Below are positions 1-14,337 of a stretch of 64,000 bases of DNA, piece by piece. The stretch comes from Ferribacterium limneticum (GTDB taxonomy: Bacteria > Pseudomonadota > Gammaproteobacteria > Burkholderiales > Rhodocyclaceae). The position numbers were made by a program, and so were the translations under genes. Within the stretch, counting starts at the first letter, position 1. Every line of letters begins with the position of its first letter. Location: the NCBI GenBank assembly GCA_049304775.1, contig JBAQOL010000014.1:11098-75097 (forward strand), given 5' to 3'. The notes below the pieces were generated by a model that was given only the letters and a program-made list of their open reading frames with translations, had not been told where the DNA came from and searched no databases.

Positions 1-2
1 GC

Positions 3-422
3 GTGGACCTGCTGGCCCTCAAGCCCTACTTGATCCGTGCCGCCGACACCGGCGTCAAGCGCGGCAGCATGGATCTGGAGATCCACTCGGTCGTCGCCAA
101 GGGCCGCCTCAACGCCCCCGGCATGCTGACCCTGCACGATCTCGAACTGAGCAGCAACGGCTCCTTCATGGGCATCCCCCAGGCCGCCGCCGTGGCGCTC
201 ATGAAGAGCCGGGAAGGCGCCATCCAGGTCCAGTTCACCCTCGACGGCGACATCAACGACCCACGCTTTTCCCTCAACGAACAGATGCTGATCCGCATCG
301 GGGCGGGCCTGGCGGAAAGTCTGGGGATCAGTTTCGAGGGGTTGACCCGGGGTGTCGGCGGGGCTGGCGGCAACGTCGTCCGGGGCCTGGGCGAGACGTT
401 CGGGAAGTTGCTCGGGCAGTAA
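3..422 (+). CDS. C-terminal fragment of a DUF748/AsmA-like protein (5' end outside window)
   Basis: ORF open at the left edge, stop TAA at 420-422. Sequence ...FTLDGDINDPRFSLNEQM... resembles DUF748 repeat units from memory only. Confidence 0.4.
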   Translation: MDLLALKPYLIRAADTGVKRGSMDLEIHSVVAKGRLNAPGMLTLHDLELSSNGSFMGIPQAAAVALMKSREGAIQVQFTLDGDINDPRFSLNEQMLIRIGAGLAESLGISFEGLTRGVGGAGGNVVRGLGETFGKLLGQ

Positions 423-451
423 GCTGGCTCACAAGACCGGATTCCCGATTC

Positions 452-488
452 CTACGGTCAACCGGAAAAAACGGCCAAAATTGAAATC
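452..488 (+). repeat. Dispersed ~40-bp repeat, copy 1 (CTACGGTCAACCGGAAAAAACGGCCAAAATTGAAATC)
   Basis: Read directly. Lies between convergent genes ending at 422 (+) and 505 (-). Near-identical to the 8 other copies listed. Confidence 0.9.
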
Positions 489-504
489 TTCGGCACGCTG
501 AAAA

Positions 505-1962
505 TCAGCGCGCCAGCCCCGCCGCCCACGCCTCGGCCGCCGGCCTGACGATTTCTATCCACGGTCCGGGGTTGATGCCGATGCCGACGATCATGACGAC
601 GAGCGCCACCAGCACGGCCCATTCGCGCGGACGGAGATCGCTGGCGTTGGCAACCGCCGCCCGTGTCACCGGGCCGAAAAACGCCTTGCGATACAGCGAC
701 AAAAATCCGCCGGCCGCGATGGAGAGGCCGAACAGCGCCGCCATGCCGGCGCCGGTATGGCTTTGCAGAGCAGCGATGATGAGCATGAATTCGCCGGGGA
801 AGCTGCTGGTGCCCGGCATGCCGACACCGGCCAGGCCACAGATCATGAAGCCGGTGGCGAGCATCGGCATGGTTTTGGCGGCGCCGCCCAGCGCGTTGAC
901 GTCGGTTGAGCCGGTGCGCTGGCGCAGGAATTCGAGCAGCACGAACGCCCCACCGGTTGCCACCGAGAAACTGAGCAGCAGCGACACCGCGCCTTGCGCC
1001 GCCTGCGCCGTGTAGGAAGCCAGCCCGAGCACGGCCAGCCCGACGTGGCAGATGCTGGCGTAGGCCAGGCCAACGCGCAGGTTGCTTTGGGCCAGCATGC
1101 CGACTGCCCCGTAGAGGATGGCGACGGTGCCCAGCCCGGCGAGCAGCCAGTGCAGGTCGAGCGCCGCCTGCGGCGCGAGCGGAATGGCGAAGCGGATCAG
1201 GCCGAAGGCGCCGAGCTTGAGGCCGACGATCAGGGCCGTCAGCGAACCAGGCGCGGCCAGCGCGAACTGCGGCAGCCAGGTGTGGAGCGGGACGAGCGGC
1301 ACCTTGACGCCGAAGCCGAGAAGGCAGAGCAGGAAAACGGCCGTTTGCGTAGCTCGCGGCAGCGGCGCGCCGAGCAGGACAGTCAGGTCGAAGGTCAGCA
1401 CCGGCTGGCTGGTGGCGAGGATGACGAAGGCGATGAGCAGCGGGATGCCGCCGGCCAGCATGATCAGGAAGTAACGCGTCGCTGCATGGGCGCTGCCGCC
1501 AGTCACGCCCCAGCGGCCGAGCAGGAAATAGAGCGGGACCAGCGTCAGCTCCCAGAAGACGAAGAACAACGCGGTATCGAGGGCACAGAAAATACCCAGC
1601 GTCGCCATCTGGAACAACAGCAGCAGGCTGTAATGCAGGCGCGGCGCGTCGGGCACCGCGTTCCAGCTGGCAACCAGCGAGCCGAGAAATAGCAGCGCAG
1701 TGGCCGGCAAAAAGAGCACGGAAATGCCGTCGACCGCGACGAGGTAGTGAATATTGAGGCTGGCGATCCAGCTCACCCGTTCGAGCAGCTGGAAGCGCGC
1801 CCCGGTCGGGTCGTAGGCGACCAGCGCGGCGGTGGCCAGGGCCAGCGTGACGAGCATAGTGAAGGCCACGACATGGCGCGTCGCCCGCGCCGGCAGCAGC
1901 CAGATCGCCGCGATGCCGCCGATTGGCAGGAACAGGAGCAGGGAGAGCAGCGGCAGGCTCAT
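505..1962 (-). CDS. NuoM/ND4/MrpD-type proton-conducting membrane subunit (PF00361-like), last gene of the dab-like operon
   Basis: Starts MSLPLLSLLLFLP (ATG 1962-1960) in an ATGA overlap with the upstream stop. Polytopic, with motifs VDGISVLF, FFVFWELTLVPLYFLLGRWG and VPLHTWLP typical of complex I subunit M/4. The 929-aa track ORF (505-3294) is an over-extension. Confidence 0.8.
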   Translation of the reverse strand: MSLPLLSLLLFLPIGGIAAIWLLPARATRHVVAFTMLVTLALATAALVAYDPTGARFQLLERVSWIASLNIHYLVAVDGISVLFLPATALLFLGSLVASWNAVPDAPRLHYSLLLLFQMATLGIFCALDTALFFVFWELTLVPLYFLLGRWGVTGGSAHAATRYFLIMLAGGIPLLIAFVILATSQPVLTFDLTVLLGAPLPRATQTAVFLLCLLGFGVKVPLVPLHTWLPQFALAAPGSLTALIVGLKLGAFGLIRFAIPLAPQAALDLHWLLAGLGTVAILYGAVGMLAQSNLRVGLAYASICHVGLAVLGLASYTAQAAQGAVSLLLSFSVATGGAFVLLEFLRQRTGSTDVNALGGAAKTMPMLATGFMICGLAGVGMPGTSSFPGEFMLIIAALQSHTGAGMAALFGLSIAAGGFLSLYRKAFFGPVTRAAVANASDLRPREWAVLVALVVMIVGIGINPGPWIEIVRPAAEAWAAGLAR

Positions 1963-3458
1963 CGCACGAACCTCGCCGCGGCCGCCTGGCTGGCCGTTTC
2001 GGTCAAGTACAGCCAGGGCTCGGTGAAGAAGCCGATGGCCAGCATGGCGGCCAGCGCGATGCCGCAGACGACGTATTCCATCGGCAGCGTGCGGTCGACA
2101 TCGTGGCCGCCGGCTTTGGCCTGCGACAGGAAGGCCCGCTGAAAAGCCCAGAGCAGGAAGCCGGCCGCCGCGACGTTGCCGAGAGCGGTCGCCACTGTCG
2201 GCAGGGCGCCGAATTTGTCGATGGAGGCTTCGAGAATCAGGTGAGCGGCATCGAAACCAGGCGTACCGGGCATGCCGACGATGGCCAGGCCGAAAGTCAG
2301 GAAGGCGATGGCGAGGAAGGGAATGCGCTCGAACAGGCCGGACAGTTCGTGCAGCTCGGTCGTCCCCGTGCGCCGGAAGACGAAGCCGACGATGAACCAC
2401 ATGCCGGTCACCGCCAGCCCGAAGTTGGCAGCGAGCAGCATGGCGCCCTGGATGCCCGACTCGTGCAGGCTGAACAGGCCGATGACGAGCAGGCTGGTGT
2501 GGCTGACCACGGCAAAGGCGAGCAGGCGGCGCAGGTTGCTTTGCTGGAAAGCCAGCGCCGCCGTGAAAAAGACGCCGGCCATGGCGAAACCGACGACGTA
2601 GGGCTGCCAGGTTTCGACCGCCGCCGGGGTCAGCGGCAGGACGAAACGCATCATGCCGTAGATGCCGACCTTGACGCCCACCATGAGCGCCGGGGCAACG
2701 GCGATCAGGCCGTGCTGGGCCATGTTGGGCAGCCAGCCGTGCAGCGGGAAGAGCGGCGTGCGCACGGCCAAGCCGTAGAACAGCAGGTAGAAGGCGGCCG
2801 TCTGGAACTTGCCGACCGGCACGGCGCCGACCAGATCGAAGAGATCGAAGCTCCACCGGCCGCCGGTCGCCTCGGCATGGCCCCAGCCGAGGACCAGGCA
2901 ACCAGCCGCGAAGAGCACCCAACCGAAGGCCTGATACTGGACGAAGCGCGCCAGCGCGTGGATTTCGGCCCGCGACGAAGCCCAGCGCCGGAGCAGGAAA
3001 ACCACCGCCCACAATTCGAGGGCGGAGAAGGCGGCGAACCACGCCACATTGACCGTGACCAGCATGCCGACCAGCCCGGCTTCGGCCAGCAGCAGCACGG
3101 CAAACAGCCGGCCCGGCGAGATCATGCCGCGGCTCATGCCGTACAGTGTCATGAGCAAAGTCAGCAGCGCAACGAGCAGCAAAAAGAGCAGGCTCAGGCC
3201 GTCGACCGCGACGTGGTAGGCCAGAGGCGCAAAGCGTTCGGCCAGTTGCAGGGCGGGCAGGGTCGGGTTGATGTGGCTGACGGCGACGATGCAAAGCAGC
3301 AGTTCGCCGAGCGCGAAGACCTTGCCGAGCGTGACGCCGGTGCGCCGCTCGTTGAGGGCATAGACCACCACCGCGCCGAGCAGCGGCAGCAGTTGCAGGG
3401 CGAGGAGCAGCGGCAGGCTCGCCTGCTCGGTCCAGAAGATTTCGGTCAGGCCGCTCAC
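1959..3458 (-). CDS. NuoM/NuoN/MrpD-type proton-conducting membrane subunit (PF00361-like)
   Basis: 499-aa polytopic protein ([26 protein letters not shown]). GTG start overlaps the dabB stop (GTGA); its stop overlaps the next start (ATGA). Confidence 0.8.
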   Translation of the reverse strand: MSGLTEIFWTEQASLPLLLALQLLPLLGAVVVYALNERRTGVTLGKVFALGELLLCIVAVSHINPTLPALQLAERFAPLAYHVAVDGLSLLFLLLVALLTLLMTLYGMSRGMISPGRLFAVLLLAEAGLVGMLVTVNVAWFAAFSALELWAVVFLLRRWASSRAEIHALARFVQYQAFGWVLFAAGCLVLGWGHAEATGGRWSFDLFDLVGAVPVGKFQTAAFYLLFYGLAVRTPLFPLHGWLPNMAQHGLIAVAPALMVGVKVGIYGMMRFVLPLTPAAVETWQPYVVGFAMAGVFFTAALAFQQSNLRRLLAFAVVSHTSLLVIGLFSLHESGIQGAMLLAANFGLAVTGMWFIVGFVFRRTGTTELHELSGLFERIPFLAIAFLTFGLAIVGMPGTPGFDAAHLILEASIDKFGALPTVATALGNVAAAGFLLWAFQRAFLSQAKAGGHDVDRTLPMEYVVCGIALAAMLAIGFFTEPWLYLTETASQAAAARFVR

Positions 3459-4981
3459 AAGATCACCACGAAAGTCGCCATCACGGCCATCATGAGGTAG
3501 CGCGGTTGTTCGAGCAGATTTTCCAGCGTCCGCAGGTAGGCGCCGGCCCGATGCATGAGCTTTTCGGCCGTGCCGCCCTTGCCGCGCAGGAGCAGGCGGT
3601 ATTCGATGCGTTGCAGGACATCCGAGGCCCAGGCCAGCAGACGCCCGGGCAGGCCGTCGGCAACGACCAGCGGGCGGTCGGCATGGACCGCCTTGCCCTG
3701 CCCCGGCTGGCCGATGGCGTGGTCGATGAAATGCTCTTCGAAGGCGTGGGCATCGCGCGAGAAAGATTCGGTTGGCTGGACGAACAAGGTATCGGCCAGC
3801 TTGTCGAGCCAGAAACGTTGCAGGGCGGCGGTGTACACCAACTGATTGTTACGCAGCCAGGCCGGCGGCGGAGGCGGCCGTTCACGGGTGATGACCAGCC
3901 ACGACGGCGCGACAAGGAAATGCCAGACGCGCCAGCCGGCATGCAGACAGAGATGGACCAGAGCCAGCGTCGTCCAGCCGAGACCGATGGAAACGAACAT
4001 CAGCGAGACCTGGAACAGCGTCGCGAAGATCAGCGCCGACTTGACGTCGGTCTGCACCAGGCCGCACAGCCAGGCGTAGATCGCCGTCAGCGCGCCGGCG
4101 ACGACGAGGCCGAACATGACGTCCGGCACCTGGACGAGCAGCGGTTCGAGACGCAGCATCAAATAGACGCCGGCATGGACCATGACGGCGCCGTAGAAGA
4201 TGGCCGACGACGGTGTCGGCCCTTCGAGCGCCTTGGTGATCCACGCCGAGAAAGGCAATTGCGCCGACTTGGCGAGTGCCGCGATGACGAAGCCGATGAC
4301 CAGCAACCGGTCATTGACGACACTGATCTGCGAGGCTTTCGAGAGCAGCGTCCACTCGAAACCGCCGAGCCATGTCGCGGCCAGCCCGAGGGCGAGCAAA
4401 AAGCCGGCATCGCCGCCGCGATTGGTGACAAAGGCGAACAGCGCGTTGCCGGTCGCCACCGGCCGATGCCAGGCGTAGCCGATGAGCAGGAAGGATGAGA
4501 CGCCGCACATTTCCCAGCCGACAAAGGCAAGCAACCCGTTGCCGGCGAGCAGGACGAGCTGGATGCCGGCCAGGAAGAAACTGAGGGCGATGAAGAAACG
4601 GTGGAAGCCGGCCTCGCGGTGCAGGTAGTTGGCCGAGAAACGCATGACCAGCCAGCCGATCAGGGCAGTCAGCGTACCCAGCGTCAGCGACAGCGGGTCG
4701 AGCATGAAGGAGAAGGTTGCCTCCCAGTTGCCGTTGCCGAACCAGTGGGCGAGGCGAAGGTGGCCGGGGGGGGCGTCGATCAGGGCCAACGTATCGATGG
4801 CCAGCATGAGGACCAGACCGCCGAAAGCGGCGAGCGACGACAGCCGGGCGGTTAGCGGCTCGGCGGCGTCGCCGGTGGCTGTGCCGAGCAGGACGCGGGC
4901 GGCGTTGATGACGACGGCGACGAGGGGCAGGACGGGGACGAGCCAGATCCAGTTGGGGAGAGTTTCGAGCAGGACCATCAT
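3455..4981 (-). CDS. dabB: NuoL-like antiporter-type subunit, DabB-type partner of DabA
   Basis: 508 aa. The N-terminal two thirds are NuoL/ND5-like (FVGWEMCGVSSFLLIGYAW, KSAQLPFSAWI). ATG overlaps the dabA stop (ATGA), with AAGGAG 7 nt upstream. Confidence 0.75.
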   Translation of the reverse strand: MMVLLETLPNWIWLVPVLPLVAVVINAARVLLGTATGDAAEPLTARLSSLAAFGGLVLMLAIDTLALIDAPPGHLRLAHWFGNGNWEATFSFMLDPLSLTLGTLTALIGWLVMRFSANYLHREAGFHRFFIALSFFLAGIQLVLLAGNGLLAFVGWEMCGVSSFLLIGYAWHRPVATGNALFAFVTNRGGDAGFLLALGLAATWLGGFEWTLLSKASQISVVNDRLLVIGFVIAALAKSAQLPFSAWITKALEGPTPSSAIFYGAVMVHAGVYLMLRLEPLLVQVPDVMFGLVVAGALTAIYAWLCGLVQTDVKSALIFATLFQVSLMFVSIGLGWTTLALVHLCLHAGWRVWHFLVAPSWLVITRERPPPPPAWLRNNQLVYTAALQRFWLDKLADTLFVQPTESFSRDAHAFEEHFIDHAIGQPGQGKAVHADRPLVVADGLPGRLLAWASDVLQRIEYRLLLRGKGGTAEKLMHRAGAYLRTLENLLEQPRYLMMAVMATFVVIL

Positions 4982-7900
4982 TTGGGCTCCTTGAAGCTCG
5001 CCATCGTCGGGAAAATAGCTCCCTCCCCGTCAAGGGGAGGGCTGGGGTGGGGATGGGTCAGCGGGGTTCCGTGCCCAAACCCATCCCCCTCCCTGCCTCC
5101 CCCTTGAAGGGGGAGGAGCGTAGTTGCCCTGGCCCCACCAAGAACAATCGCCGGCGCCAGCGCTTCCGACTCACCGGCGAACCAGTCGGCCGAGCGCCCC
5201 ACCTGCGGCAGCACTGCCGGACCGGACCACGGCAGCCAGCCGCGGCGCGGGCAGTAAAGCTCGATTGCTGCGGTCGACGGGGATTTTGCGGCCAAAACGA
5301 TCCATTCGTTGTTGATCAGTTCCTGCAGCGGCGGCTGGCGATTGAGGATGGCGGTCAGCACTTCGGGCGTCTGTTCGACGACGACGAGCAGGCGCATCGG
5401 CTCGTGGATTTCGACCATCTGCCAGGGCAGGCCGGTGCGCAAGTCCGAATCGGCGCCTTCCATGACGCCGAACAGGCCGGTGACGTTGTGGGTGATTTTC
5501 GAACCGCAGCCGAAATGTTCGTTATCGACCGTCGAGAAATAGTATTCGAGGGCGATGCCGGCGCCGACCGGTCCGGCGGCGAGCAGGATGCCTTCGACGA
5601 TGCTGCCGTCGTCATCGCTGGCCGGATCGTAGGAAATCAGGAAAACGCGGCGGTCGAGGAATAGGCCGCGACTCATTTCGCGCCGGCCGATGAAGGCTGC
5701 GGCGTTGGTAGCGTGGCCGAGTTCCGGCCGGGCCTGGGAAATATCGCTGGCCCGCCCGAGCATGTGCTGGCGGGCTTTCCACGGTGTCGGGCGCACTGGC
5801 GCCGAGGCCAGCCGGCGACAACGCTCTGCCGCATGCGCCCGGCAGGCTTCGCCGACTTGGGCCAGCAGGGTGTCGAGCGCCGCATGGAAACGCTCCGGCA
5901 CGGCTTCAAGGTCGTACCACTCGACGCCGTCGTCGCAGGTGTTGTGCTCGGCGGCGATGAACCAGCAGGTTTCGGGAACCAGAAAGCCATGCGCCGCCAG
6001 CCCGGCCCGGACTTCGGGACGATTGGCCATGGCCGCGAAAATCCGCGCATTCGGCCCGCCGTGCTTGCCGGAGCAGGCGCCGCAGTCGTAGGCAGAGAGG
6101 TGGGGATTGTTCTGGCTGCCCGAGCCGTGGCCGAAGAACAGGACGAGCGGGGCGAAATTGCCGGCCAGGCCGATCATGCGCAGGAAGTCTTCGACGTACT
6201 TGACCTGCTCGGCATCGGTCAGGCCCAGTTGCGGTTGCTCGGGCGTCGCCTCGGCTTGCTGCTCGGCGGTCAGGGCGAGGCGGGTGGCCAGCCGGCCGTC
6301 GTATTGTTCGCGCCAGCGCCGTGCCGTTTCGGCGAACCAGCCGGGGGCCAACGTCACCGCCGTCAGCGCGGCGATGGCCGGCAGGCTGCCGAGTGCAGTC
6401 AGAATCGGGCCGGCCACGGCGCGCCGGCGCGTCGCCTGATAGAAAAGTTCGCGCCAGTGCAGGCGCTTTTCGCGGCGGGCGGCGCGCTGGCCCTGTTCGA
6501 TTTCGCCGCCGACACCGCCCAGTTCGCGGACGAGTTGGGTCGGCCGCACGACAATCGGGCAGAGCGCCGTCTTTTCGGCATCGTCCAACCCCTGCCAGTA
6601 GATCGGCACGCCGAAGAAGCCGACGGCGCCATAGGTGACGATATCCGGTGCAACTTCTTCAAGATGGCGGCGCGTGCCCTCCTCGCGGTCGTCCATGCAC
6701 ATGACGACCTGGGCCGATGGCGTGGCCGGCCCGGTCTGGCGCGGATGGTTGGCGGTCAGCGCCGAGAAAAGCTGTTCGCGGTAATGACGTTCGTAGGCGA
6801 GCAGCCAGATCTGGCTGCGCTGCTCGGCAGTCAGGCTGCCGGCGCAGGATTGCAGGGCGACGACTTCTTCGCGGCTCAGCGTTTCGAGGTCAGCCAGCGT
6901 CAGGCCGAGCTGCCGGCACAGCGCGGCGAGTTGCCACGCGTCACCATGGGCTTGCGCCTTGCCGACGAGCGGCGCCACGGATTCCGCCAGGCGACACCAC
7001 TCATTTGCATCGACATGGCCGTTGCGCGCCAGATCGACGAGCCGCGCGGCGCGATCTTGCTTGGCTTCGGGAAGCCAGGGGGCATGGCGAATGTCGCGGA
7101 TGAGCAGTTCTTCCGGATGCTCGACGTAATAGGCCGGCAAATCGGCCAGTGTCGTCGGGCTGCCAGTCAGGCGCCGGATCAGATCGTCGGTGAGCAGCCG
7201 TTCGAGGAGGACACGGACGGCTAGGTAATCGATCATGGCGACCGGCGTGCCGTCGCCGCGTTGCGGGTTGCGGTCGCGCCACAGGAACATGCCGGACCAG
7301 CCGGGCAGTTCGAGGGACAGGCGCTGCAGGTAGCCATACCACAGGCTGTCGTCCGGCATCAGCCGGGGCAGTTCGTCGAGCAGAACGTCGATCGGGCTGT
7401 CCGGCAGATGCAGGATTTCGTCGCGAACGTTGGGCAACTCGTCCATTTCCCAAGCCAGATCGAGCCCGGCACTGGCCCGCCAGGCGGCGAAGAAGCCCTG
7501 ATCCTGCGCCGGATTGCGCCAGGCGGCGACACCGAGGTCGAGATGCGCCGCCAGATGCCGCTGCAGGATGCTGCGTACCCTTTCGAGGATGTCCTCATCG
7601 GCCAGGTGTTCGAGCAGGCCGCGCCATGTCCAGCCTTTGCCGACCCGCGCCTGCAAGACAGCCCAGCGGGCCGACGCCTGCGCCCGCCAGGGCTGCGCCT
7701 CCGGGCTGGACACCGATGCTACGGTCAACCGGAAAAAATGGCCAAAAATGAAATCTTCTGCCAGCCCGCCCTCGCGCTGCAGCCAGTCCAAACGGCTGGC
7801 ATCGGGCACTTCGTTGCCGGCCTGCAGACTGGCCAGGAGGATGTCGCGCCGGGTGAGCGCCCGCACGACCGGCAAATCCAGGTCGGCCAGGCCGAAATCG

Positions 7901-8163
7901 TCGAGGGCGGCGCTCAGGTCGTCGGCGCTGATGCGTCCGCTGGCCAGGCAGTCGCGGAATTTCGCTTCCGGCCACCAGGTCGTCGCCCCGGTCAGTGCAC
8001 TGGCCGCCGTCAGCGCTTCGGCGAAGGGCAGATGCTGGAAACCATGCAGGGTGTTGTGGTGCACGAAATCGCGGATCGGCGCCTGCGCCGGCAGCACATG
8101 CGTCAGATGCTCGACCCAGTGGGCCAGGCGGTCGCGGATGGGCAGGTCGTGTTCGGCGCTCAT
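4978..8163 (-). CDS. dabA: DUF2309/UPF0753 protein, DabA-type inorganic-carbon pump subunit
   Basis: N-terminus PIRDFVHHNTLHGF is typical of DUF2309. Beta-CA-like ligand motifs are present (MCMDDRE; GHGSGSQNNPHLSAYDCGACSG). Start taken at MSAEHD (ATG 8163-8161), 1 nt after the upstream stop. Confidence 0.85.
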   Translation of the reverse strand: MSAEHDLPIRDRLAHWVEHLTHVLPAQAPIRDFVHHNTLHGFQHLPFAEALTAASALTGATTWWPEAKFRDCLASGRISADDLSAALDDFGLADLDLPVVRALTRRDILLASLQAGNEVPDASRLDWLQREGGLAEDFIFGHFFRLTVASVSSPEAQPWRAQASARWAVLQARVGKGWTWRGLLEHLADEDILERVRSILQRHLAAHLDLGVAAWRNPAQDQGFFAAWRASAGLDLAWEMDELPNVRDEILHLPDSPIDVLLDELPRLMPDDSLWYGYLQRLSLELPGWSGMFLWRDRNPQRGDGTPVAMIDYLAVRVLLERLLTDDLIRRLTGSPTTLADLPAYYVEHPEELLIRDIRHAPWLPEAKQDRAARLVDLARNGHVDANEWCRLAESVAPLVGKAQAHGDAWQLAALCRQLGLTLADLETLSREEVVALQSCAGSLTAEQRSQIWLLAYERHYREQLFSALTANHPRQTGPATPSAQVVMCMDDREEGTRRHLEEVAPDIVTYGAVGFFGVPIYWQGLDDAEKTALCPIVVRPTQLVRELGGVGGEIEQGQRAARREKRLHWRELFYQATRRRAVAGPILTALGSLPAIAALTAVTLAPGWFAETARRWREQYDGRLATRLALTAEQQAEATPEQPQLGLTDAEQVKYVEDFLRMIGLAGNFAPLVLFFGHGSGSQNNPHLSAYDCGACSGKHGGPNARIFAAMANRPEVRAGLAAHGFLVPETCWFIAAEHNTCDDGVEWYDLEAVPERFHAALDTLLAQVGEACRAHAAERCRRLASAPVRPTPWKARQHMLGRASDISQARPELGHATNAAAFIGRREMSRGLFLDRRVFLISYDPASDDDGSIVEGILLAAGPVGAGIALEYYFSTVDNEHFGCGSKITHNVTGLFGVMEGADSDLRTGLPWQMVEIHEPMRLLVVVEQTPEVLTAILNRQPPLQELINNEWIVLAAKSPSTAAIELYCPRRGWLPWSGPAVLPQVGRSADWFAGESEALAPAIVLGGARATTLLPLQGGGREGDGFGHGTPLTHPHPSPPLDGEGAIFPTMASFKEPK
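5019..5118. repeat. GC-rich REP/BIME-like double-hairpin palindromic element inside the 3' end of dabA
   Basis: Left arm ctccctccccgtcaaggggagggctggggtggggatgggt and right arm acccatccccctccctgcctcccccttgaagggggaggag are imperfect reverse complements. Each arm contains its own CCCTCCCC/GGGGAGGG hairpin. Confidence 0.75.
7718..7755 (+). repeat. Dispersed ~40-bp repeat, copy 2, located inside the dabA coding sequence
   Basis: GCTACGGTCAACCGGAAAAAATGGCCAAAAATGAAATC, translated in dabA as EDFIFGHFFRLTVAS without breaking the frame. Confidence 0.9.
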
Positions 8164-8164
8164 G

Positions 8165-9610
8165 TCACGTCCCGAACAGGCGGGCGACCTGGCCGACACT
8201 GCCGGCGACCAGGTCGAGCAAGGGGGCCGGCCAGACGCCAAGGCCAACGATGCACAGCGCCAAAATCCCGGCCGCCACCGCTTCGGTCCGCGTCATGTCC
8301 GGCAGGTCCATGGGCTTGCCTTTCAGGCACAGGCGACCGATGACGCGCAGGCTGTAGGCGGCGCCGATAAGCATGGCGAGGCAGAGGATCAGCACCCAGC
8401 CACCCCAGCGCTGATAGCCGCCGACCAGCGCATGCAGTTCGGCGATGAAGCCGGCGCTGCCCGGCAGGCCGATCGCGGCGAGCAGGCCGAAAGCCGTGAA
8501 GAAGGCGAAGCGCGGCGCCTTGCCGAGCAGCGAACCGTAATCGGCCAGATCGCGGCTGTGGGTACGCTGGTAGAGCAGGCCGACGACGAGAAAGAGCAGG
8601 CCGGCGGTCAGCCCGTGCGCCACCATCTGCATGACGGCGCCAGTCAGGCCGGTGACGTTGAGCGTGGCGATACCGAGCAGTACGACACCCATGTGCGAGA
8701 TCGACGAGTAGGCGACCATCGCTTTCAAGTCCTGCTGCCGCCAGGCCAGGATGCCACCATAAAGCAGGCTGATGAAGGCGAGAATGACCAGCCAGTCCTG
8801 CGTCGCCAGCAGCGCGGCGGGCAATGTTTCGGCGGCGCGGATCAGCCCGTAGGCGCCCATCTTGAGCAGCACGCCGGAAAGCAGGATGGACACCGGGCTG
8901 GGCGCTTCGACGTGGGCCAGCGGCAGCCAGCCGTGCAGCGGAAAGACCGGCATCTTGACGCCGAAGCCGATGAAAAAGCCGGCAAAAATCAGCAATTGCG
9001 TATTGAGCGGCAGGCCACGCCCGCCTTCGGCCATGTCGGCCATGGCGAAACTGTGGCCAGGCGCCGCGTCATATAAGAAGAGTAGCGCGACGAGCATGAA
9101 CACCGAACCACCCAGCGTGTACAGAAAAAAGTTGAGCGCCGCGCGTTGCCGGTTCGGGCCGCCCAGCCGGTCGATCAGGAAGAACAGCGGCAGCAGCGTC
9201 GCTTCCCAGAAAACATAAAACAGTGACCAGTCGCGCGCCATGAAGACGCCGAACATCGCCGACTCGAGCAGCAGCACCAGCACGAAATAAAGTCGCGCCC
9301 CCGCTTCCATGCGCCGCGACATCAGCACGGCAATGAGCGACAGCAGCGCCGTGAGCAGCACCATGGCCAGCGAAATGCCATCGACGCCGAGCGCAAAATA
9401 GGAACCGAGCCGGCGGTTCCACGCCCTGCTCTCGAACATCTGCAGCGCCGGCCCGGCCGTGTCGAACTGCCCGGCCAGCCACAGCGAATAACCCAGCGCC
9501 CCCAGCGCAAAGGCCATCGCCACCTGCCACAGCGGCAGGGCGCGACGCACTGGCAGAACGGCCAGCAGGAGCGCGCCCACCACCGGCAGAAAAACCAGCA
9601 CCTTCAGCAT
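8165..9610 (-). CDS. NuoM/ND4-type proton-conducting membrane subunit (PF00361-like), first gene of the dab-like operon
   Basis: 481 aa ([36 protein letters not shown]). Stop lies 1 nt before the dabA ATG. Confidence 0.8.
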
Positions 9611-9810
9611 GTCCCGGCCCCTCCGCCAGTCTGCTCGGCTATCGTTATTTTCATGCCGTGATTATGCCAGCGACCCAGGCTTTGCGGACAGGCCGTGCCG
9701 CTTTCCGCCGGCGCCGTTCGGGCCGGAATAGCCGTTTGACACCTTATGCCAGCTTGGTTAAATTGCCTGCTCCCCCCACCCCACAAACCCATCAATACAA
9801 GGAGCTCCCC

Positions 9811-10410
9811 ATGGCCGTTCTCGTTGGCAAGCAAGCACCGGATTTCACCGCCACCGCCGTATATGGCAACAATGAAATAAAGGAACTGAAGCTCTCCTCC
9901 TTCAAGGGCAAGCCCGTCGTTCTCTTCTTCTATCCGCTCGACTTCACCTTCGTCTGCCCGTCCGAGCTGATCGCCTTCGATCATCGCCTGTGCGAATTCG
10001 AACAGCGCGGCGTCGAAGTCATCGGCGTCTCGATCGACTCGCAGTTCACCCACCTGGCCTGGAAGAACACCCCGGTCAAGGAAGGCGGCATCGGCCAGGT
10101 CGGCTACCCGCTGGTCGCCGACGTCAAGCACGACATCTGCCGCGCCTACGACGTCGAGCTCGAAGCCGCCGGCGTCGCCCTGCGCGGGTCCTTCCTGATC
10201 GACAAGAACGGCGTCGTCATGCACCAGGTCGTCAACATGCTGCCGCTCGGCCGCAACATCGACGAAATGCTGCGCATGGTTGACGCCCTGCAATTCTTCG
10301 AAGAGCACGGTGAAGTCTGCCCGGCCGGCTGGAGCAAGGGCAAACCCGGCATGACCGCGTCGACCGAAGGCGTTGCCGCCTACCTGGCCAAGAACGCCAA
10401 GAAACTGTAA
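9811..10410 (+). CDS. Typical 2-Cys peroxiredoxin (AhpC/Prx1 family)
   Basis: [12 protein letters not shown]...[14 protein letters not shown] (peroxidatic Cys) and ...HGEVCPAGW (resolving Cys). AAGGAG lies 6 nt upstream of the ATG at 9811. Confidence 0.9.
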
Positions 10411-10447
10411 CGGCGCATTTGCCCACGGACTGGGCATCGGCGACAAA

Positions 10448-10480
10448 AACCCGAGCGCCAATACGCCTCGGGTTTTTTTT
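10448..10480 (+). terminator. Rho-independent terminator after the peroxiredoxin gene
   Basis: aacccgag...ctcgggtt stem followed by a T8 run. Confidence 0.7.
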
Positions 10481-10545
10481 ATTGTAGTTTCGCGCGATTA
10501 CAGGATAAAATTTGGCGAATTTGTAATTTCAGCAAAGACAAGATC

Positions 10546-11133
10546 ATGGCCGATTCCGAATATCTCAGCACCAGGCAAGCAGCCCTCCGTCTGGGTGTTT
10601 CCTTGGGCACAGTTCAGAACATGGTTGAAAGCGGCGCGCTCGAAGCGTGGAAAACCGCCGGCGGACATCGCCGCATTCCGGTTGCATCGGTTGATGCCCT
10701 GCTCGCCCGTCGGCGCAACCTGACGCCAAGCGCTCAGGAATATGGCGGCCAGATCGAAATCCTCGTCGCCGAAGACGATCTGACCCTGCAGATGCTCTAC
10801 CAGATGACCGTCGATAGCTGGAACCTGCCAGTCAAACTGCGCATCGTTGCCAACGGTTTCGATGGCCTGCTGCAAGTCGGCCAGCGTGTCCCCGACATCC
10901 TGATCGCCGACCTCATGATGCCGGGCATGGACGGCTTCGAAATGATCCGCCGCCTGCGCGCCAATACCGATCTGGCCCGCATGGACATCATCGTCGTCAG
11001 CGCCATCGACCGCGAAGAGATTCTCGAACGCGGCCTGCCATCCGACATCACCATTTTCGGCAAGCCGATTCCCTTCCACGAAATCAAGGGATTCATCCTC
11101 GGCCGCCTGGCGGCTCGCCAGCGCAGCAACTAA
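10546..11133 (+). CDS. Response regulator: excisionase-type HTH (HTH_17) fused to a receiver domain
   Basis: N-terminus LSTRQAALRLGVSLGTVQNMVESGALEAWKTAGGHRRIP. The REC domain has ILVAEDD, ILIADLMMPGMDG and FGKP. Confidence 0.8.
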   Translation: MADSEYLSTRQAALRLGVSLGTVQNMVESGALEAWKTAGGHRRIPVASVDALLARRRNLTPSAQEYGGQIEILVAEDDLTLQMLYQMTVDSWNLPVKLRIVANGFDGLLQVGQRVPDILIADLMMPGMDGFEMIRRLRANTDLARMDIIVVSAIDREEILERGLPSDITIFGKPIPFHEIKGFILGRLAARQRSN

Positions 11134-11224
11134 AAAACAAATAATGACGCCGCCTGAAAAAATCGGGCGGACGATCACATTGCACCGCAATCCCGTCCAC
11201 TAAAAAAGATTCAGGAGACACACC

Positions 11225-12742
11225 ATGGGATTTTTTGGCAACAGCAGCGCACTCGAGAAGATTGACCGCGACATCGCGGCGATCGCTGACGGCAGCGCTG
11301 ACCTTTCGTACTCGGTAGGCCATGCCGGCAGCGATGCCGCCGGGCGCATTTCCGGCAACATCAACCGCTTTTTCAGCCGTGTCCGCGGCCTCATTTCACA
11401 TGCCCGCGAGCGCAGCGTCAGCATTGCTGCCGACGCCGCCCGGATGAACAGTCAGGTGCAGCAGACCGACGACGCCGTGCGCCGCCAGGAAGCCCTCGCC
11501 GCCAATGTCTTCGAGTCGAGCAACCTGGTCAATCAGGCGGTCAGTGAAGTGGCAAGGAATTCGGACGCCATCCAGGCATCGACCCAGAACAACCTCGACC
11601 TCGCCCAGCGCTCGCTGGAGCAGATGGAAACGGTGGCCTCGACCATGCGCTCGACCAACGCGCACATTGAGCATTTTTCGGCGACGGTGGCCGAACTGCA
11701 CACCAATTCTATGAAGATCGACCAGATCGTCTCACTGATCAACGATATTTCCGACCAGACCAATCTGTTGGCGCTCAATGCCGCCATCGAAGCCGCCCGG
11801 GCCGGCGAAGCGGGCCGCGGTTTTGCCGTGGTCGCCGACGAAGTGCGAAAACTGGCGGAAAAGGTCAAGACGGCAACCCAGGTCATCGGCCAGAACACGC
11901 AGTCGATGATCAACCTCGTCTCCGACACCTCAGCCAAGACACAGACCATCGTCGGCGAAGTGACGCGGGCCAATGGCTACATCGAAACCTCGGCCGCCGA
12001 CCTGACGACCATGGTTTCCGACTTCAAGCAGACCACCGAGCAGTTGTCGTCCATTTCGACCGCAATCTACAACCTGCGCGAGAGCAATCAGACGATCCAC
12101 CACGAAGTCGAAGGCATCCGCGATCATTCGCGCGATATTTCCGGGCGCATGAAACAGTGTCTGGATAGCGCCAAGACCCTGCGCGAATCGACCGAAGACC
12201 TGCAGTGCACGCTGGCCGATTTCCGCACCGGCAACAGCATGTTCGACACCCTGCACGACAAGTGCGCCGGCTTCCGCGACAACGTCGTTGCCGTGCTGCA
12301 GAAAATGGCCGACCGTGGGGTTAATGTCTTCGATCAGGCCTACAAGGAAATTCCCGGCTCCAACCCGAAGCGCTACACGACAGCTTACGACAATCAGTGC
12401 GATGCCGAACTGACCCGCATGTACGACGACCTGCTACGTGATGTACCCGGCCTGACCTATTCGCTGTCAGTCGACACCAACGGCTACGCGCCGGCCCACA
12501 ATGGCGTCTTCTCCAATCAACCGAGCGGCGACCCGGCTGTCGACCTGGTCAAATGCCGGCACAAGCGGATATTCAACGACCCGGTCGGCCTCAAGCTGGC
12601 CAAGAACCAGAAGTCCTCACTGTTCCAGACCTACGTCCGCGACACCGGTGAAATCCTGGCCGACCTCTCGATGCCCGTCCTGGTCGGCGGCCGCCACTGG
12701 GGTGCCGTGCGCATCGGCTTCAAGACCGATCTGGTCAAATAG
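11225..12742 (+). CDS. Soluble methyl-accepting chemotaxis protein with C-terminal Cache-like sensor domain
   Basis: No TM segment. Signalling hairpin [37 protein letters not shown]-terminal ~170 aa ends in [13 protein letters not shown], as in Cache domains. Confidence 0.8.
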
Positions 12743-12899: not shown

Positions 12900-13595
12900 T
12901 CAGACGCCCATCCGACGGCGGCGGACCATGGCGCCAATCACGCCCAAGCCAGCGAGCAACATGGCGAAGGATTGGGGTTCCGGAACAGCCGTCACGTTGA
13001 TATCGAGGAGCACACTCTTCTTCTCGATAAACGCGTAACCGCTGTTAGGAACATAGGCACCGAGGATGTTTTCGATGCTGACCACGGCCTGGTCGGTGGC
13101 CAACTGACCGACGCTCGCCAAGGCGGTCCAGTTCGTCGTAGCAAGATTGGCGAACGAACTGCTGGTGACATTCAGCGGAGCAGTCGAGGCGATGCTGTTA
13201 GTCAAATTCACGTTGGCATTGACCAGATCCTGAACGCGCAACTGTCCAAGAACGGCCACTTCGCTACCGGTACCAATTTGGAAGTAATCACCCTTTTCGA
13301 CCAGGTTAAAACCAGTCAGCTGGTAACCAGCATCAGCGGTAATGGTCAGCGCAACGGTGGAATTGGTGAAGTCAAAGCCAGAGCTGGTTTGGGCGGAAAA
13401 ACCCGGAGTTCCACTCGGCGTAAATGCCAGATCACCCGAAGCGGTTAGCGTCGGAGTACCGAACAGGCCGAGAAGCGAGTCGTCAAAGCTGATGGTGTAG
13501 TTGCCGGCGTCCAGCGTCTGCGTTGCAGCCAGCGCACTGGTTGAGATCAAGGCCGTGGCGATTAGCGCGGCCAGCGGTTTGAGTTGATTGAACAT
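12900..13595 (-). CDS. PEP-CTERM sorting-domain secreted protein
   Basis: Signal peptide MFNQLKPLAALIATALISTSALA. C-terminus VPEPQSFAMLLAGLGVIGAMVRRRR. AGGAG lies 5 nt before the ATG at 13595. Confidence 0.85.
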   Translation of the reverse strand: MFNQLKPLAALIATALISTSALAATQTLDAGNYTISFDDSLLGLFGTPTLTASGDLAFTPSGTPGFSAQTSSGFDFTNSTVALTITADAGYQLTGFNLVEKGDYFQIGTGSEVAVLGQLRVQDLVNANVNLTNSIASTAPLNVTSSSFANLATTNWTALASVGQLATDQAVVSIENILGAYVPNSGYAFIEKKSVLLDINVTAVPEPQSFAMLLAGLGVIGAMVRRRRMGV

Positions 13596-13659
13596 TAGCA
13601 CTCCTGCACAGGACTAGTGGTTAAAGACATGTTCGCAAAGACAATGCAAACGGAATGTC

Positions 13660-13687
13660 ATACTAGCAGCAAAAATTCCAACGTCAA
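13660..13687 (-). promoter_or_regulatory. Putative sigma70 promoter for the PEP-CTERM gene
   Basis: On the minus strand: TTGACG, 16 nt, TAGTAT, in an AT-rich 265-bp intergenic region. Prediction by eye only. Confidence 0.3.
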
Positions 13688-13866
13688 TATTATTTTTGCA
13701 TAGCAATATGTCGCCACATAGCGACAATTACTTAATTTAATTGATTATTTTTAAAAATTGCGAAATATATGCTGCGTTGCAATATTTTTTATATATGACG
13801 ATGTCAGTGACCAACATTACAGTTCAACTAGTCCGCCGAGGAACTGGAAACCCAGGACAAGGCGAC

Positions 13867-14337
13867 TCAGGCGAACTGCGCCAGCAACTCTTTCAGGTAG
13901 TCGTCGGCGGTAGGTGTCCCCTCGGCCGGGGCCCAGGGAGCGCGTTCTGATTCGGCAATCGGCACGTAGGGACCGGCTTTGGCCTCGAAAAAGACGGTGC
14001 CCGGCTCCAGCGCAAGAACCGTATGGAAAACGCCATGCGGAATGTCGATGCCAATCGCCTCGCCGCCGGCCTGCAGCACGATGCTACGGTCAACGGCATT
14101 TTCGGCCCGAAAAATGACAATTCCGAGTCGCCCACTGACGACAAGCAATGTCTCATCCTTGTCGGGATCGAGGTGTCGGTGTGGAGCGACATACGATCCG
14201 GGCTCGATGGCAATCAGCAAACGGTGGGCCGGATAGGCATCCCCCGGATGAAAGTTGCGATTTTTGCGCAAGCGAGGCGCCTGTTCGGCTTCGGCAGTCA
14301 GGCTGGCGAGCAGAGCCCGGTCAATCAGCGTCGTCAC
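13867..14337 (-). CDS. WbuC-family cupin fold protein
   Basis: 156 aa with cupin His motifs (APHRHLDPDKDETLLVVSG, IPHGVFH). GTG start overlaps the dnaE stop (GTGA). Confidence 0.7.
   Translation of the reverse strand: MTTLIDRALLASLTAEAEQAPRLRKNRNFHPGDAYPAHRLLIAIEPGSYVAPHRHLDPDKDETLLVVSGRLGIVIFRAENAVDRSIVLQAGGEAIGIDIPHGVFHTVLALEPGTVFFEAKAGPYVPIAESERAPWAPAEGTPTADDYLKELLAQFA

Follow-up and report, generated by a model that had tools for sequence, protein, structure and literature searches.

A conserved five-gene operon joins a DabA homologue to four complex-I-type antiporter-like subunits in Ferribacterium limneticum

Introduction

Work is under way to engineer DAB CO2 pumps into crops and industrial microbes, and their coupling mechanism is still debated; two structures reported in 2026 assign different roles to the DabA hairpin. 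In the two-subunit form, DAB2/MpsAB (DabB-DabA; PDB 9rd0), the NuoL-like DabB2 has 15 transmembrane (TM) helices, retains the TM7 Lys/Asp pair and the TM11 His residues, and carries Ile at the position matching the TM5 Glu, uncoupled from a neighbour; restoration of the Glu impairs function (bioRxiv 10.64898/2026.03.13.711513). E444 in the DabA2 finger is essential for DAB2. An earlier sequence-only reading of the locus studied here described the characterised DABs as two-component, which is incomplete, as DAB1 (DabA-DabC-DabB; Thermocrinis albus cryo-EM, H. neapolitanus Hneap_0907-0909) is a heterotrimer with DabC beside DabB at the NuoM position (bioRxiv 10.64898/2026.05.01.722082). For DAB1, proton motive force (PMF)-coupled vectorial CO2 hydration has been proposed.

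Similar in concept are the cyanobacterial NDH-1MS/MS' complexes, in which a CO2-hydrating cap (CupA/CupB) sits on an L-type and an M-type subunit (NdhF3/NdhD3). Chains of PF00361 modules also make up the complex I arm (NuoL-M-N) and the Mrp antiporter (MrpA-MrpD), and both arms require small subunits (NuoA/J/K or MrpB/C/E/F/G). Prior literature on arrangements in which NuoM-type genes accompany a dabA-like gene was found to consist only of a 2017 remark that NuoM genes lie beside some ybcC/nuoL pairs.

Results

Five intact open reading frames on the minus strand of the 64-kb stretch of DNA that was analysed (the window) form a genuine, tightly packed operon, in the order g1 (8165-9610, 481 aa), dabA (4978-8163, 1061 aa), g3 (3455-4981, 508 aa), g4 (1959-3458, 499 aa; called M*) and g5 (505-1962, 485 aa). 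The spacers are +1, -4, -4 and -4 nt; direct reading of the junctions gives TGAcATG, with its 1-nt spacer, between g1 and dabA, followed by ATGA, GTGA and ATGA overlaps, in agreement with the spacing of 0-4 nt noted previously. The ATG of g1 is preceded at 8 nt by a GGAGGGG Shine-Dalgarno sequence, and the intergenic region that holds it (9611-9808), as read from the sequence, is common to g1 and a divergent peroxiredoxin gene; no Rfam element was found in this region, and a consensus scan confirmed no minus-strand promoter upstream of g1. At the other end, the consensus scan placed a terminator-like hairpin with a T-run 11 nt past the g5 stop (474-494, minus strand), a weak candidate with three GC pairs whose position is its sole support. 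The window contains no further PF00361 gene. Low-sensitivity searches bore out the earlier statement that RuBisCO, carboxysome genes and small Nuo subunits are not visible: a motif scan of the window found no RuBisCO or BMC-shell motifs, and tblastn with NuoJ/K gave no match across the window and 161 loci. RuBisCO and carboxysome genes were also missing within ±10 kb of every locus.

The family assignments made from the letters alone hold in both Pfam (PF10070, PF00361) and NCBIfam searches. DabA matches PF10070 with 797 bits over the full profile (1-747 of 747) and DabA2 (9rd0_A) at E=3.5e-69. Its Zn ligands C489 and D491 (CMDDR), H679 (GHGS) and C694 (DCGAC), in motifs that the sequence-only reading had picked out, align with the ligands of the solved DabA2, and their columns are invariant in 15 homologues. 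A hydrophobic hairpin spans approximately residues 585-610 (hydropathy peak 587-608), the position of the DabA2 finger residue E444 is occupied by Thr within a weakly aligned stretch, and the predicted structure, with a pLDDT of 55.6, is of too low quality to be informative. The protein is 100% identical to an NCBI protein labelled 'MAG: Ferribacterium limneticum'.

At the dabA/g3 junction, comparison with three loci that lack it (L002, L006 and L008) delimited a GC-rich palindromic REP/MITE-like insertion of ~140 nt (approximately 4990-5120), with inverted arms at 5018-5058 and 5079-5119 and an internal terminator-like hairpin and T-run (5041-5021). The insertion adds 49 residues to DabA as a strain-specific tail (1013-1061), and its core recurs at the same junction in one other locus (L080). 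Because this palindrome lies at the 3' end of dabA, the ATGA overlap between dabA and g3 in this strain is not the ancestral junction. Across loci the dabA/g3 spacing is -4 nt in 54 of 74, and the same overlaps prevail.

The g3 product (PF00662 and PF00361) had been called DabB; it is an atypical DabB, closer to NuoL/NdhF than to DabB2. NCBIfam NuoL models score 218-233 bits against 127 bits for the NdhF3 model, the best model being NuoL over residues 10-360 only, and an hhalign alignment to E. coli NuoL covers residues 9-355 only. In a PDB sequence search NdhF/ND5/NuoL rank first, with 169 bits for NdhF and 74 bits for DabB2. The core of the AF2 model is confident, and its best Foldseek match is NuoL/ND5 (rmsd ~2 Å over ~353 columns). 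The protein ends after TM11: residues 345-490 are devoid of TM-grade hydropathy and are predicted by AF2 to contain helices but no TM bundle, so that the TM12-15 of DabB, which wrap the DabA elbow/finger in both solved structures, are missing. What follows is a helical, hydrophilic tail of ~150 aa (AF2 pLDDT <50) and a short conserved hydrophobic C-terminus; the likeness of the tail to the NuoL lateral helix is without statistical support. All 72 orthologues share E157, R188, D191, K238, H347 and R351, and 62 of them have H343. Both NuoL ion pairs are retained; along the proton path the TM7 Lys (K238) and the TM11 His are kept, and Arg (R351) invariably replaces the TM11 Lys. Since E157, R188, D191 and K238 are invariant and the matching Glu is Ile in DabB2, g3 seems built to communicate with an adjacent module. 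A TM12 Lys/Asp is also lacking, which leaves the periplasmic half of a g3 proton path without explanation.

The remaining three proteins are NuoM-type PF00361 subunits (232 bits for g1), and TIGR01972 (NuoM) is the best model for g1, g4 and g5 with 478, 269 and 397 bits, respectively, against a cut-off of 263.8 bits; the best-scoring MrpD-annotated NCBIfam models reach only 144, 105 and 128 bits. PDB sequence searches rank NuoM/ND4/NdhD first for both g1 and g4. The NuoM residue set (TM5 Glu, TM7 Lys, TM8 Lys and TM12 Glu) is complete in g1 and g5 and incomplete in g4. In g1 these four residues and a His are invariant in 77 orthologues, and all five NuoM channel residues of g5 are invariant in 65; the 100% conservation argues for g1 and g5 being working channels under selection. 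In a neighbour-joining (NJ) tree g1 clusters with E. coli NuoM (support 0.75). Of the two NuoM/ND4-type genes described earlier downstream of g3, g5 is canonical and g4 is not: across 70 orthologues of g4, Ala, Gly, Leu, Thr or Val stands in place of the TM5 Glu, TM7 carries Arg throughout and the TM12 Glu is replaced by Ala or Val; K263, H320, D403 and H406 are invariant. The protein is also the most conserved of the five among close relatives, and it clusters with the M* gene that comes third in the sister operons described below (support 0.60), where 44 of 47 share its TM7 Arg. Judged by these residue patterns, g4 is a conserved, rewired form of NuoM.

To survey the arrangement, the 80 best DabA loci of GTDB species genomes, with DabA identities of 87 to 42%, were combined with 14 further metagenome loci. 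The five-gene order recurs in more than 90 bacterial loci, spanning Beta- and Gammaproteobacteria and Magnetococcales, and no sufficiently complete locus of the clade departs from the order, strand and near-zero spacing of g1-dabA-g3-g4-g5, with g1 and g5 present in all complete ones. The sequence-only reading had named non-conserved adjacency as a ground for refutation, and the adjacency proves conserved. The flanks vary, and no flanking gene is conserved outside Azonexaceae. Hosts include Azonexaceae, Accumulibacter, sulfur oxidisers, symbionts and Magnetococcales, and many are heterotrophs; two variants (L161 and L063) have other module numbers. In the DabA NJ tree, which contains 97 five-gene-type and 59 three-gene-type loci, the five-gene loci form a single clade whose sister clade carries a three-gene dabA-L'-M* operon (metagenome loci L083-L162; apparently the COGNAT 'clade C', PMC5700660). 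These sister operons share the dabA-then-L order, an L' limited to NuoL TM1-11 with the E/R/D/K/H/R pattern of g3, and a third gene with the TM7 Arg and lost TM5 Glu of g4; they differ in lacking g1 and g5, in an L' tail that is ~50 aa shorter without a hydrophobic end, and in a more degenerate M* (TM8 Lys replaced by His, Gln or Met).

Compared with the solved pumps, the cluster represents a larger, widespread and so far uncharacterised kin of the two- and three-subunit DABs. It resembles DAB1 in a long DabA, at ~1000 aa, whose gene lies upstream of a NuoL-like gene, a β-carbonic-anhydrase (CA)-type Zn site, a candidate membrane-inserting elbow, a further membrane subunit that would occupy the NuoM place beside the NuoL-like one, and PMF-coupled vectorial CO2 hydration as the proposed function. 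Here, however, that neighbour is the full-length NuoM-type g4, accompanied by two canonical NuoM-type subunits; DabB1 has TM12-15 and the TM11 Lys, neither of which is found in g3 with its invariant Arg; and the order is M-A-L-M*-M rather than A-C-B. Assignment to the DAB1 subtype was rejected, as there is no small non-Pfam DabC gene, dabA and g3 overlap or abut, and the next gene is a full-length PF00361 gene. With DAB2 it shares DabA homology, identical Zn ligands and the TM7 and TM11 residues of the NuoL-like partner, but the B-A gene order is reversed, g3 has the TM5 Glu and 11 TM helices plus a tail, and a counterpart of DabA2 Glu444 is not evident. An NDH-1MS CO2-uptake complex was likewise rejected: CupA is unrelated to DabA, none of the five proteins has a Cup/Chp family match in Pfam, where DabA matches PF10070 alone, g3 scores lower with NdhF3 than with NuoL, and the cyanobacterial complex is redox-driven with small membrane subunits. 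The full NuoM set of g1 and g5 and the superposition of the g3 core on NuoL recall the complex I arm and Mrp, yet the L-type subunit is truncated, and an N-type module, NuoA/H/J/K, MrpB/C/E/F/G and a redox arm are all missing. Respiratory complex I was excluded because NuoA/H/J/K genes cannot fit into junctions of only -4 to +1 nt, no flanking gene is conserved beyond Azonexaceae and the low-sensitivity tblastn gave no NuoJ/K match, and an Mrp (CPA3) antiporter because only PF00361/PF00662 domains occur and the MrpA/MrpD models fall far below NuoL/NuoM.

Discussion

The five proteins probably make up a single membrane complex, a vectorial carbonic anhydrase of the DAB type that is enlarged by a four-module complex-I-like arm and coupled to the PMF; that they assemble physically, in which order and ratio, and which ion moves in which direction, is what we infer from the patterns above. 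DabA would be the cytoplasmic Zn β-CA-like head that hydrates CO2 to HCO3-, with its hydrophobic hairpin inserted beside g3, where the TM12-15 displaced by this hairpin in the solved DABs are simply absent. The NuoL residues kept in g3 may hand charge sideways to a neighbouring module, g4 would sit at the NuoM position as a connector, and g5 and g1 would serve as fully canonical NuoM-type proton channels. Inward H+ flow through the arm, driven by the PMF, might then gate the buried active site to make hydration one-way; this mechanism has been proposed for DAB1 and DAB2, and here each CO2 would have more coupling sites. In favour of a single complex, besides the family and active-site matches, the tight spacing, the conserved order, the single DabA clade and the residue patterns described above, are the placement of DabC in DAB1 and the g3 tail, which measures 161 aa here and ends in a conserved hydrophobic stretch, against ~109 aa with no anchor in the sister clade, where there is a single M*. 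Against it, this cluster encodes no small Nuo/Mrp subunits, the g3 tail is modelled with low confidence, Thr aligns, if weakly, with the essential E444 of the DabA2 finger, g3 lacks a TM12 Lys/Asp, and several H+ per CO2 seem to exceed the energy need of bicarbonate accumulation. A role in a CO2-concentrating mechanism is not indicated, because RuBisCO and carboxysome genes are lacking within ±10 kb and many hosts are heterotrophic. More tentatively, with slightly less than even confidence, all five might constitute a free-standing complex-I-type arm (truncated L, M* and two canonical M) driven or gated by a non-redox CA head; the four chained modules under a CA cap that the sequence-only reading suggested are likewise tentative.

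An unlikely alternative is that DabA-g3-g4 is the working pump and that g1/g5 are a co-expressed separate module or dispensable, for example independent H+/cation channels or an antiporter pair balancing the pH/charge load of CO2 hydration. The sister clade, with dabA-L'-M* only, would make g1 and g5 additions to a self-sufficient core, and g1 is encoded on the opposite side of dabA and lies nearer to true NuoM than g4 and g5 do; the variants with other module numbers point the same way. However, no complete locus of the clade lacks g1 or g5, both of which are translationally coupled to the genes beside them, the longer, anchored g3 tail is confined to the five-gene type, and from complex I and Mrp, NuoM-type subunits are not known to function by themselves.

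Distinctly less probable is a mainly Mrp-like Na+/K+ cation/proton transporter serving ion homeostasis, with DabA supplying or sensing H+/HCO3-, by analogy with the role in Na+ transport argued for S. aureus MpsAB. PF00361 subunits are common to Mrp, hosts are often heterotrophs, no carbon-fixation genes are linked to the cluster, and MpsAB is reported, as cited in bioRxiv 10.64898/2026.03.13.711513, to complement Na+-transport defects; in the same preprint, however, DAB2 was shown neither to need nor to move Na+. The NuoM-over-MrpD scores of all three M-type subunits and the missing MrpA C-terminal domain and MrpB/C/E/F/G also count against it. Chance adjacency or a decaying nuo/mrp remnant beside a dabAB pair, to which the unusual composition and the disruption tolerated at the dabA/g3 insertion might point, is effectively refuted by intact reading frames, order and spacing kept down to ~40% DabA identity within one DabA clade, and invariant functional residues.

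If the single complex is real, no earlier case would exist of several antiporter modules in a chain being coupled to a reaction as simple as hydration, and it would provide a minimal system, free of redox chemistry, in which to study how antiporter-like modules couple laterally over a long range. With no redox arm or small subunits, it is a candidate minimal system for sideways energy transfer, a long-standing complex I question. Together with the sister clade and the DabC of DAB1, it would trace a series between the full chain and the two-subunit DAB, readable in either direction, that links DAB evolution to Mrp/complex I. The g3 Glu lost in DabB2, the absence of TM12-15, the g4 connector and the intact g1/g5 channels offer natural contrasts for DAB models. 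Given its occurrence in Accumulibacter and in many sulfur oxidisers and symbionts, the cluster may also bear on the inorganic-carbon physiology of communities in wastewater and sediment. These questions are directly testable because cultured hosts exist, among them Dechloromonas denitrificans ATCC BAA-841, Azonexus fungiphilus DSM 23841, A. hydrophilus DSM 23864 and A. caeni KACC11481.

Organization and borders of the operon

The five open reading frames, all intact and arranged head-to-tail on the minus strand, bear out the five-gene operon described in the sequence-only reading, as do the Pfam and NCBIfam matches and the tight junctions. From 5' to 3', they comprise g1 (8165–9610; 481 aa; PF00361), dabA (4978–8163; 1061 aa), whose carbonic anhydrase-like product matches PF10070 over its full length (797 bits), g3 (3455–4981; 508 aa; PF00662 and PF00361), g4 (1959–3458; 499 aa; PF00361) and g5 (505–1962; 485 aa; PF00361). 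The NuoM model TIGR01972 ranked first in NCBIfam for g1, g4 and g5 (478, 269 and 397 bits, respectively), and a NuoL model ranked first for g3, with the match confined to its first ~360 residues; searches of PDB sequences agreed with these assignments of the membrane subunits. The successive junctions read TGAcATG, ATGA, GTGA and ATGA, and the operon is bordered upstream by a divergent peroxiredoxin gene and downstream by a weak terminator-like hairpin 11 nt past the g5 stop codon. No further PF00361 genes were present in the 64 kb, and a low-sensitivity motif check of the same stretch found no RuBisCO or carboxysome-shell (BMC) motifs, in agreement with the earlier observation that no such genes were visible. 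An Rfam scan of positions 1–11500 returned no riboswitch or leader, only sub-threshold matches to miRNA hairpins on a palindromic insert near the 3' end of dabA. A MAG of Ferribacterium limneticum (Azonexaceae) encodes a protein identical to the DabA of the window.

Three plus-strand genes upstream lie outside the conserved module: the peroxiredoxin gene (9809–10410), a gene for a 195-aa protein (10546–11133) with synteny limited to Azonexaceae, whose relative in locus L001 contains HTH_17 and response regulator domains by Pfam, and a gene for a 505-aa protein (11225–12742) resembling, by eye, a methyl-accepting chemotaxis protein.

Conservation of the five-gene order

The first neighbourhood came from a homologue 63% identical to the window's DabA. 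When GTDB species, each represented by a single genome, were scanned with a DabA alignment, at least 582 DabA loci were obtained, of which the best 80 were kept. Every one of these 80 with sufficient contig carried g1-dabA-g3-g4-g5 on a single strand, and the protein at each position had its counterpart in the window as its best match, with DabA identity to the window ranging from 87% down to 42%. The hosts included Azonexaceae, Accumulibacter, Methyloversatilis, Thiobacillus, Sulfurimicrobium, Acidiferrobacterales, Sedimenticolaceae, Thiothrix, Thiohalophilus, one bivalve symbiont and Magnetococcales. Beyond the synteny within Azonexaceae, no conserved neighbour was found among regulators, PII, SulP, carbonic anhydrase, RuBisCO and carboxysome genes, and RuBisCO and BMC motifs were absent from the loci; five-residue β-carbonic anhydrase motif matches near the loci were dismissed as chance. 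Since the flanks are not conserved beyond Azonexaceae, the five genes form a unit, and the adjacency is meaningful; the earlier interpretation as one operon is thus supported by an order that is kept while the flanks vary. In all loci the junctions mostly overlap or abut, the dabA/g3 junction being −4 nt in 54 of 74, counts that are indicative but inexact since start-codon choice was biased to short gaps.

Sister operons and variant loci

The DabA family comprised ~1756 representatives at 50% identity (E ≤ 1e-30); the five-gene clade could not be sized from this representative search, in which scores slid from 971 to 505 bits without a gap. When metagenomes were scanned with long DabAs of greater divergence, 14 five-gene loci were added, together with a large three-gene set consisting of dabA, an L-type gene and one M-type gene, without g1. 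In a neighbour-joining tree of 156 DabAs the root separated 97 five-gene-type from 59 three-gene-type sequences, and the seeming exceptions within the five-gene clade were artefacts of the ORF heuristic. The sister clade was represented by 47 loci within L083–L162 (for example, L087:7893–13905), arranged as dabA-L'-M*, in which L' is likewise NuoL TM1–11 only and M* is a full-length, degenerate NuoM-type protein. This form differs from the CO2 hydration pump DAB1 in having no small DabC and in its gene order, and seems to be as uncharacterised as the five-gene form.

In a Thiothrix MAG (L063, 8448–23183) the order was g1-dabA-g3-dabA-g3-g4-g5, the dabA-g3 pair being duplicated in tandem within the operon; its second DabA is just 39% identical to the window's. 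A metagenome contig (L161:3003–15586) encodes g1, dabA, a long ORF resembling g3, two genes resembling g5 and another resembling g1, and the number of modules is therefore not always four.

Divergence of the membrane subunits

To judge from their residues, the three NuoM-type subunits are not equivalent. The TM5 Glu, TM7 Lys, TM8 Lys, conserved His and M-specific TM12 Glu were all present in 77 of 77 g1 orthologues and 65 of 65 g5 orthologues. In g4 the TM5 Glu is gone, the TM7 Lys is always Arg and the TM12 Glu is replaced by Ala or Val; K263, H320, D403 and H406 showed no exceptions among orthologues, and g4 was the best conserved of the five proteins among close relatives, so that its changes look like rewiring, not decay. 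In the sister operons, the third gene has the g4-type TM7 Arg in 44 of 47 loci and has likewise lost the TM5 Glu; in the M-type tree it grouped with g4 at a bootstrap of 0.60 (0.04 with g5 and 0.00 with g1), and E. coli NuoM grouped with g1 (0.75). The mutual identity of g1, g4 and g5 is only 30–32%, which makes them old lineages.

The remaining membrane subunit, g3, is by its alignment a NuoL cut down to TM1–11. In hhalign it aligned to E. coli NuoL over residues 9–355, and the AF2 core was confident, with NuoL, ND5 and NdhF as top structural matches (~2 Å over ~353 columns); the DabA model built from 15 close homologues reached pLDDT 55.6 and pTM 0.43 and was left out of the fold search. Past TM11, g3 continues as a helical hydrophilic tail of ~150 residues, modelled at pLDDT < 50 and ending in a conserved hydrophobic stretch, RYLMxAVMATFVVIL. 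Measured from the TM11 His, the tail spans 161 aa in g3 versus ~109 aa, unanchored, in L', the truncation point being alike. As the loss of four helices keeps the topology, a cytoplasmic position is predicted for the tail. In complex I, the lateral helix of NuoL runs on this same side. Homology of the tail to this helix (HL/TM16) was considered on the by-eye likeness of RFWLDKLADTLFVQP to NuoL FDWLYDKVFVKPF and not upheld: the hhalign match is confined to residues 1–364 and a tail HMM scored NuoL no better than 500 shuffles. The likeness is taken as a topological analogy only. Both NuoL ion pairs are kept in g3 (E157/R188 and D191/K238). In DabB2 this Glu is reported to be replaced by Ile, and its restoration to halve function (10.64898/2026.03.13.711513); the Glu kept in g3 fits a module with a neighbour to couple to.

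Relation to known systems and a model for the complex

DAB1 is a heterotrimer in which DabC, without channel residues and half as large as NuoM, sits at the NuoM place beside NuoL (10.64898/2026.05.01.722082), and DAB2 is a heterodimer of DabA and DabB (10.64898/2026.03.13.711513); in both, TM12–15 of DabB are displaced by a DabA hairpin. In contrast, TM12–15 are missing from g3. The full-length PF10070 match and the Zn ligands of a DabA were found in the window system, whereas DabB TM12–15 and DabC features, the defining small subunits of complex I and Mrp and the Cup protein of NDH-1MS-type systems were not; on this combination it is placed in the DabA family, with predicted DAB-like working, as a distinct architectural variant. 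A 2017 note, COGNAT, states in one sentence that ybcC (dabA) upstream of a nuoL homologue has NuoM and SulP genes as frequent neighbours (PMC5700660); beyond it, no published description of the five-gene form was found in the literature on DUF2309, PF10070, DabA/NuoM and YbcC/COG3002/UPF0753.

We consider it fairly probable that the five proteins form a single complex, in which DabA would be the head, g3 the coupling module, g4 the connector at the NuoM position, and g5 and g1 functioning proton channels, with the proton-motive force driving CO2 hydration in one direction. A chain architecture is plausible. Several points pose problems for this mechanism: the Glu of the DabA2 finger is not evident in the window's DabA, g3 has no obvious periplasmic half-channel, the small subunits are absent from the cluster, and multiple protons per CO2 seem excessive. 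Since carbon-fixation genes are not linked and many hosts are heterotrophs, the single complex may serve bicarbonate supply or a pH-related role rather than a carboxysomal CO2-concentrating one. Separate action of g1 and g5 beside a dabA-g3-g4 core, which the three-gene sister operons would suit, is unlikely; g1 and g5 kept their places in all complete loci of the clade. An Mrp-like role in ion homeostasis we regard as less likely still, the small Mrp subunits being missing. Assembly of the cluster by chance, or its decay, is hardly credible beside the conserved order and the invariant functional residues.

Insertions at the dabA/g3 junction

A ~140-nt GC-rich palindromic REP/MITE-like insert lies at ~4990–5120, at the minus-strand 3' end of dabA. 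It is read through in frame, adding 49 residues to DabA and replacing the g3 N-terminus, and it contains a terminator-like hairpin (5041–5021) that could reduce g3–g5 expression in this strain; the close relatives L002, L006 and L008 are without it. Inserts at this junction, palindromic or other, recur in unrelated lineages (L080, L063, L058, L003, L067 and L128), and the other three junctions of these loci stay tight. Insertions may land preferentially at this junction, or it may mark a point at which expression diverges. L080 (junction at 7600–7845) shares the core CCCCTTCAAGGGGGAGG with the window; in L063 the junction lies at 13210–13930, and the insert of L128 is AT-rich and 942 nt long.
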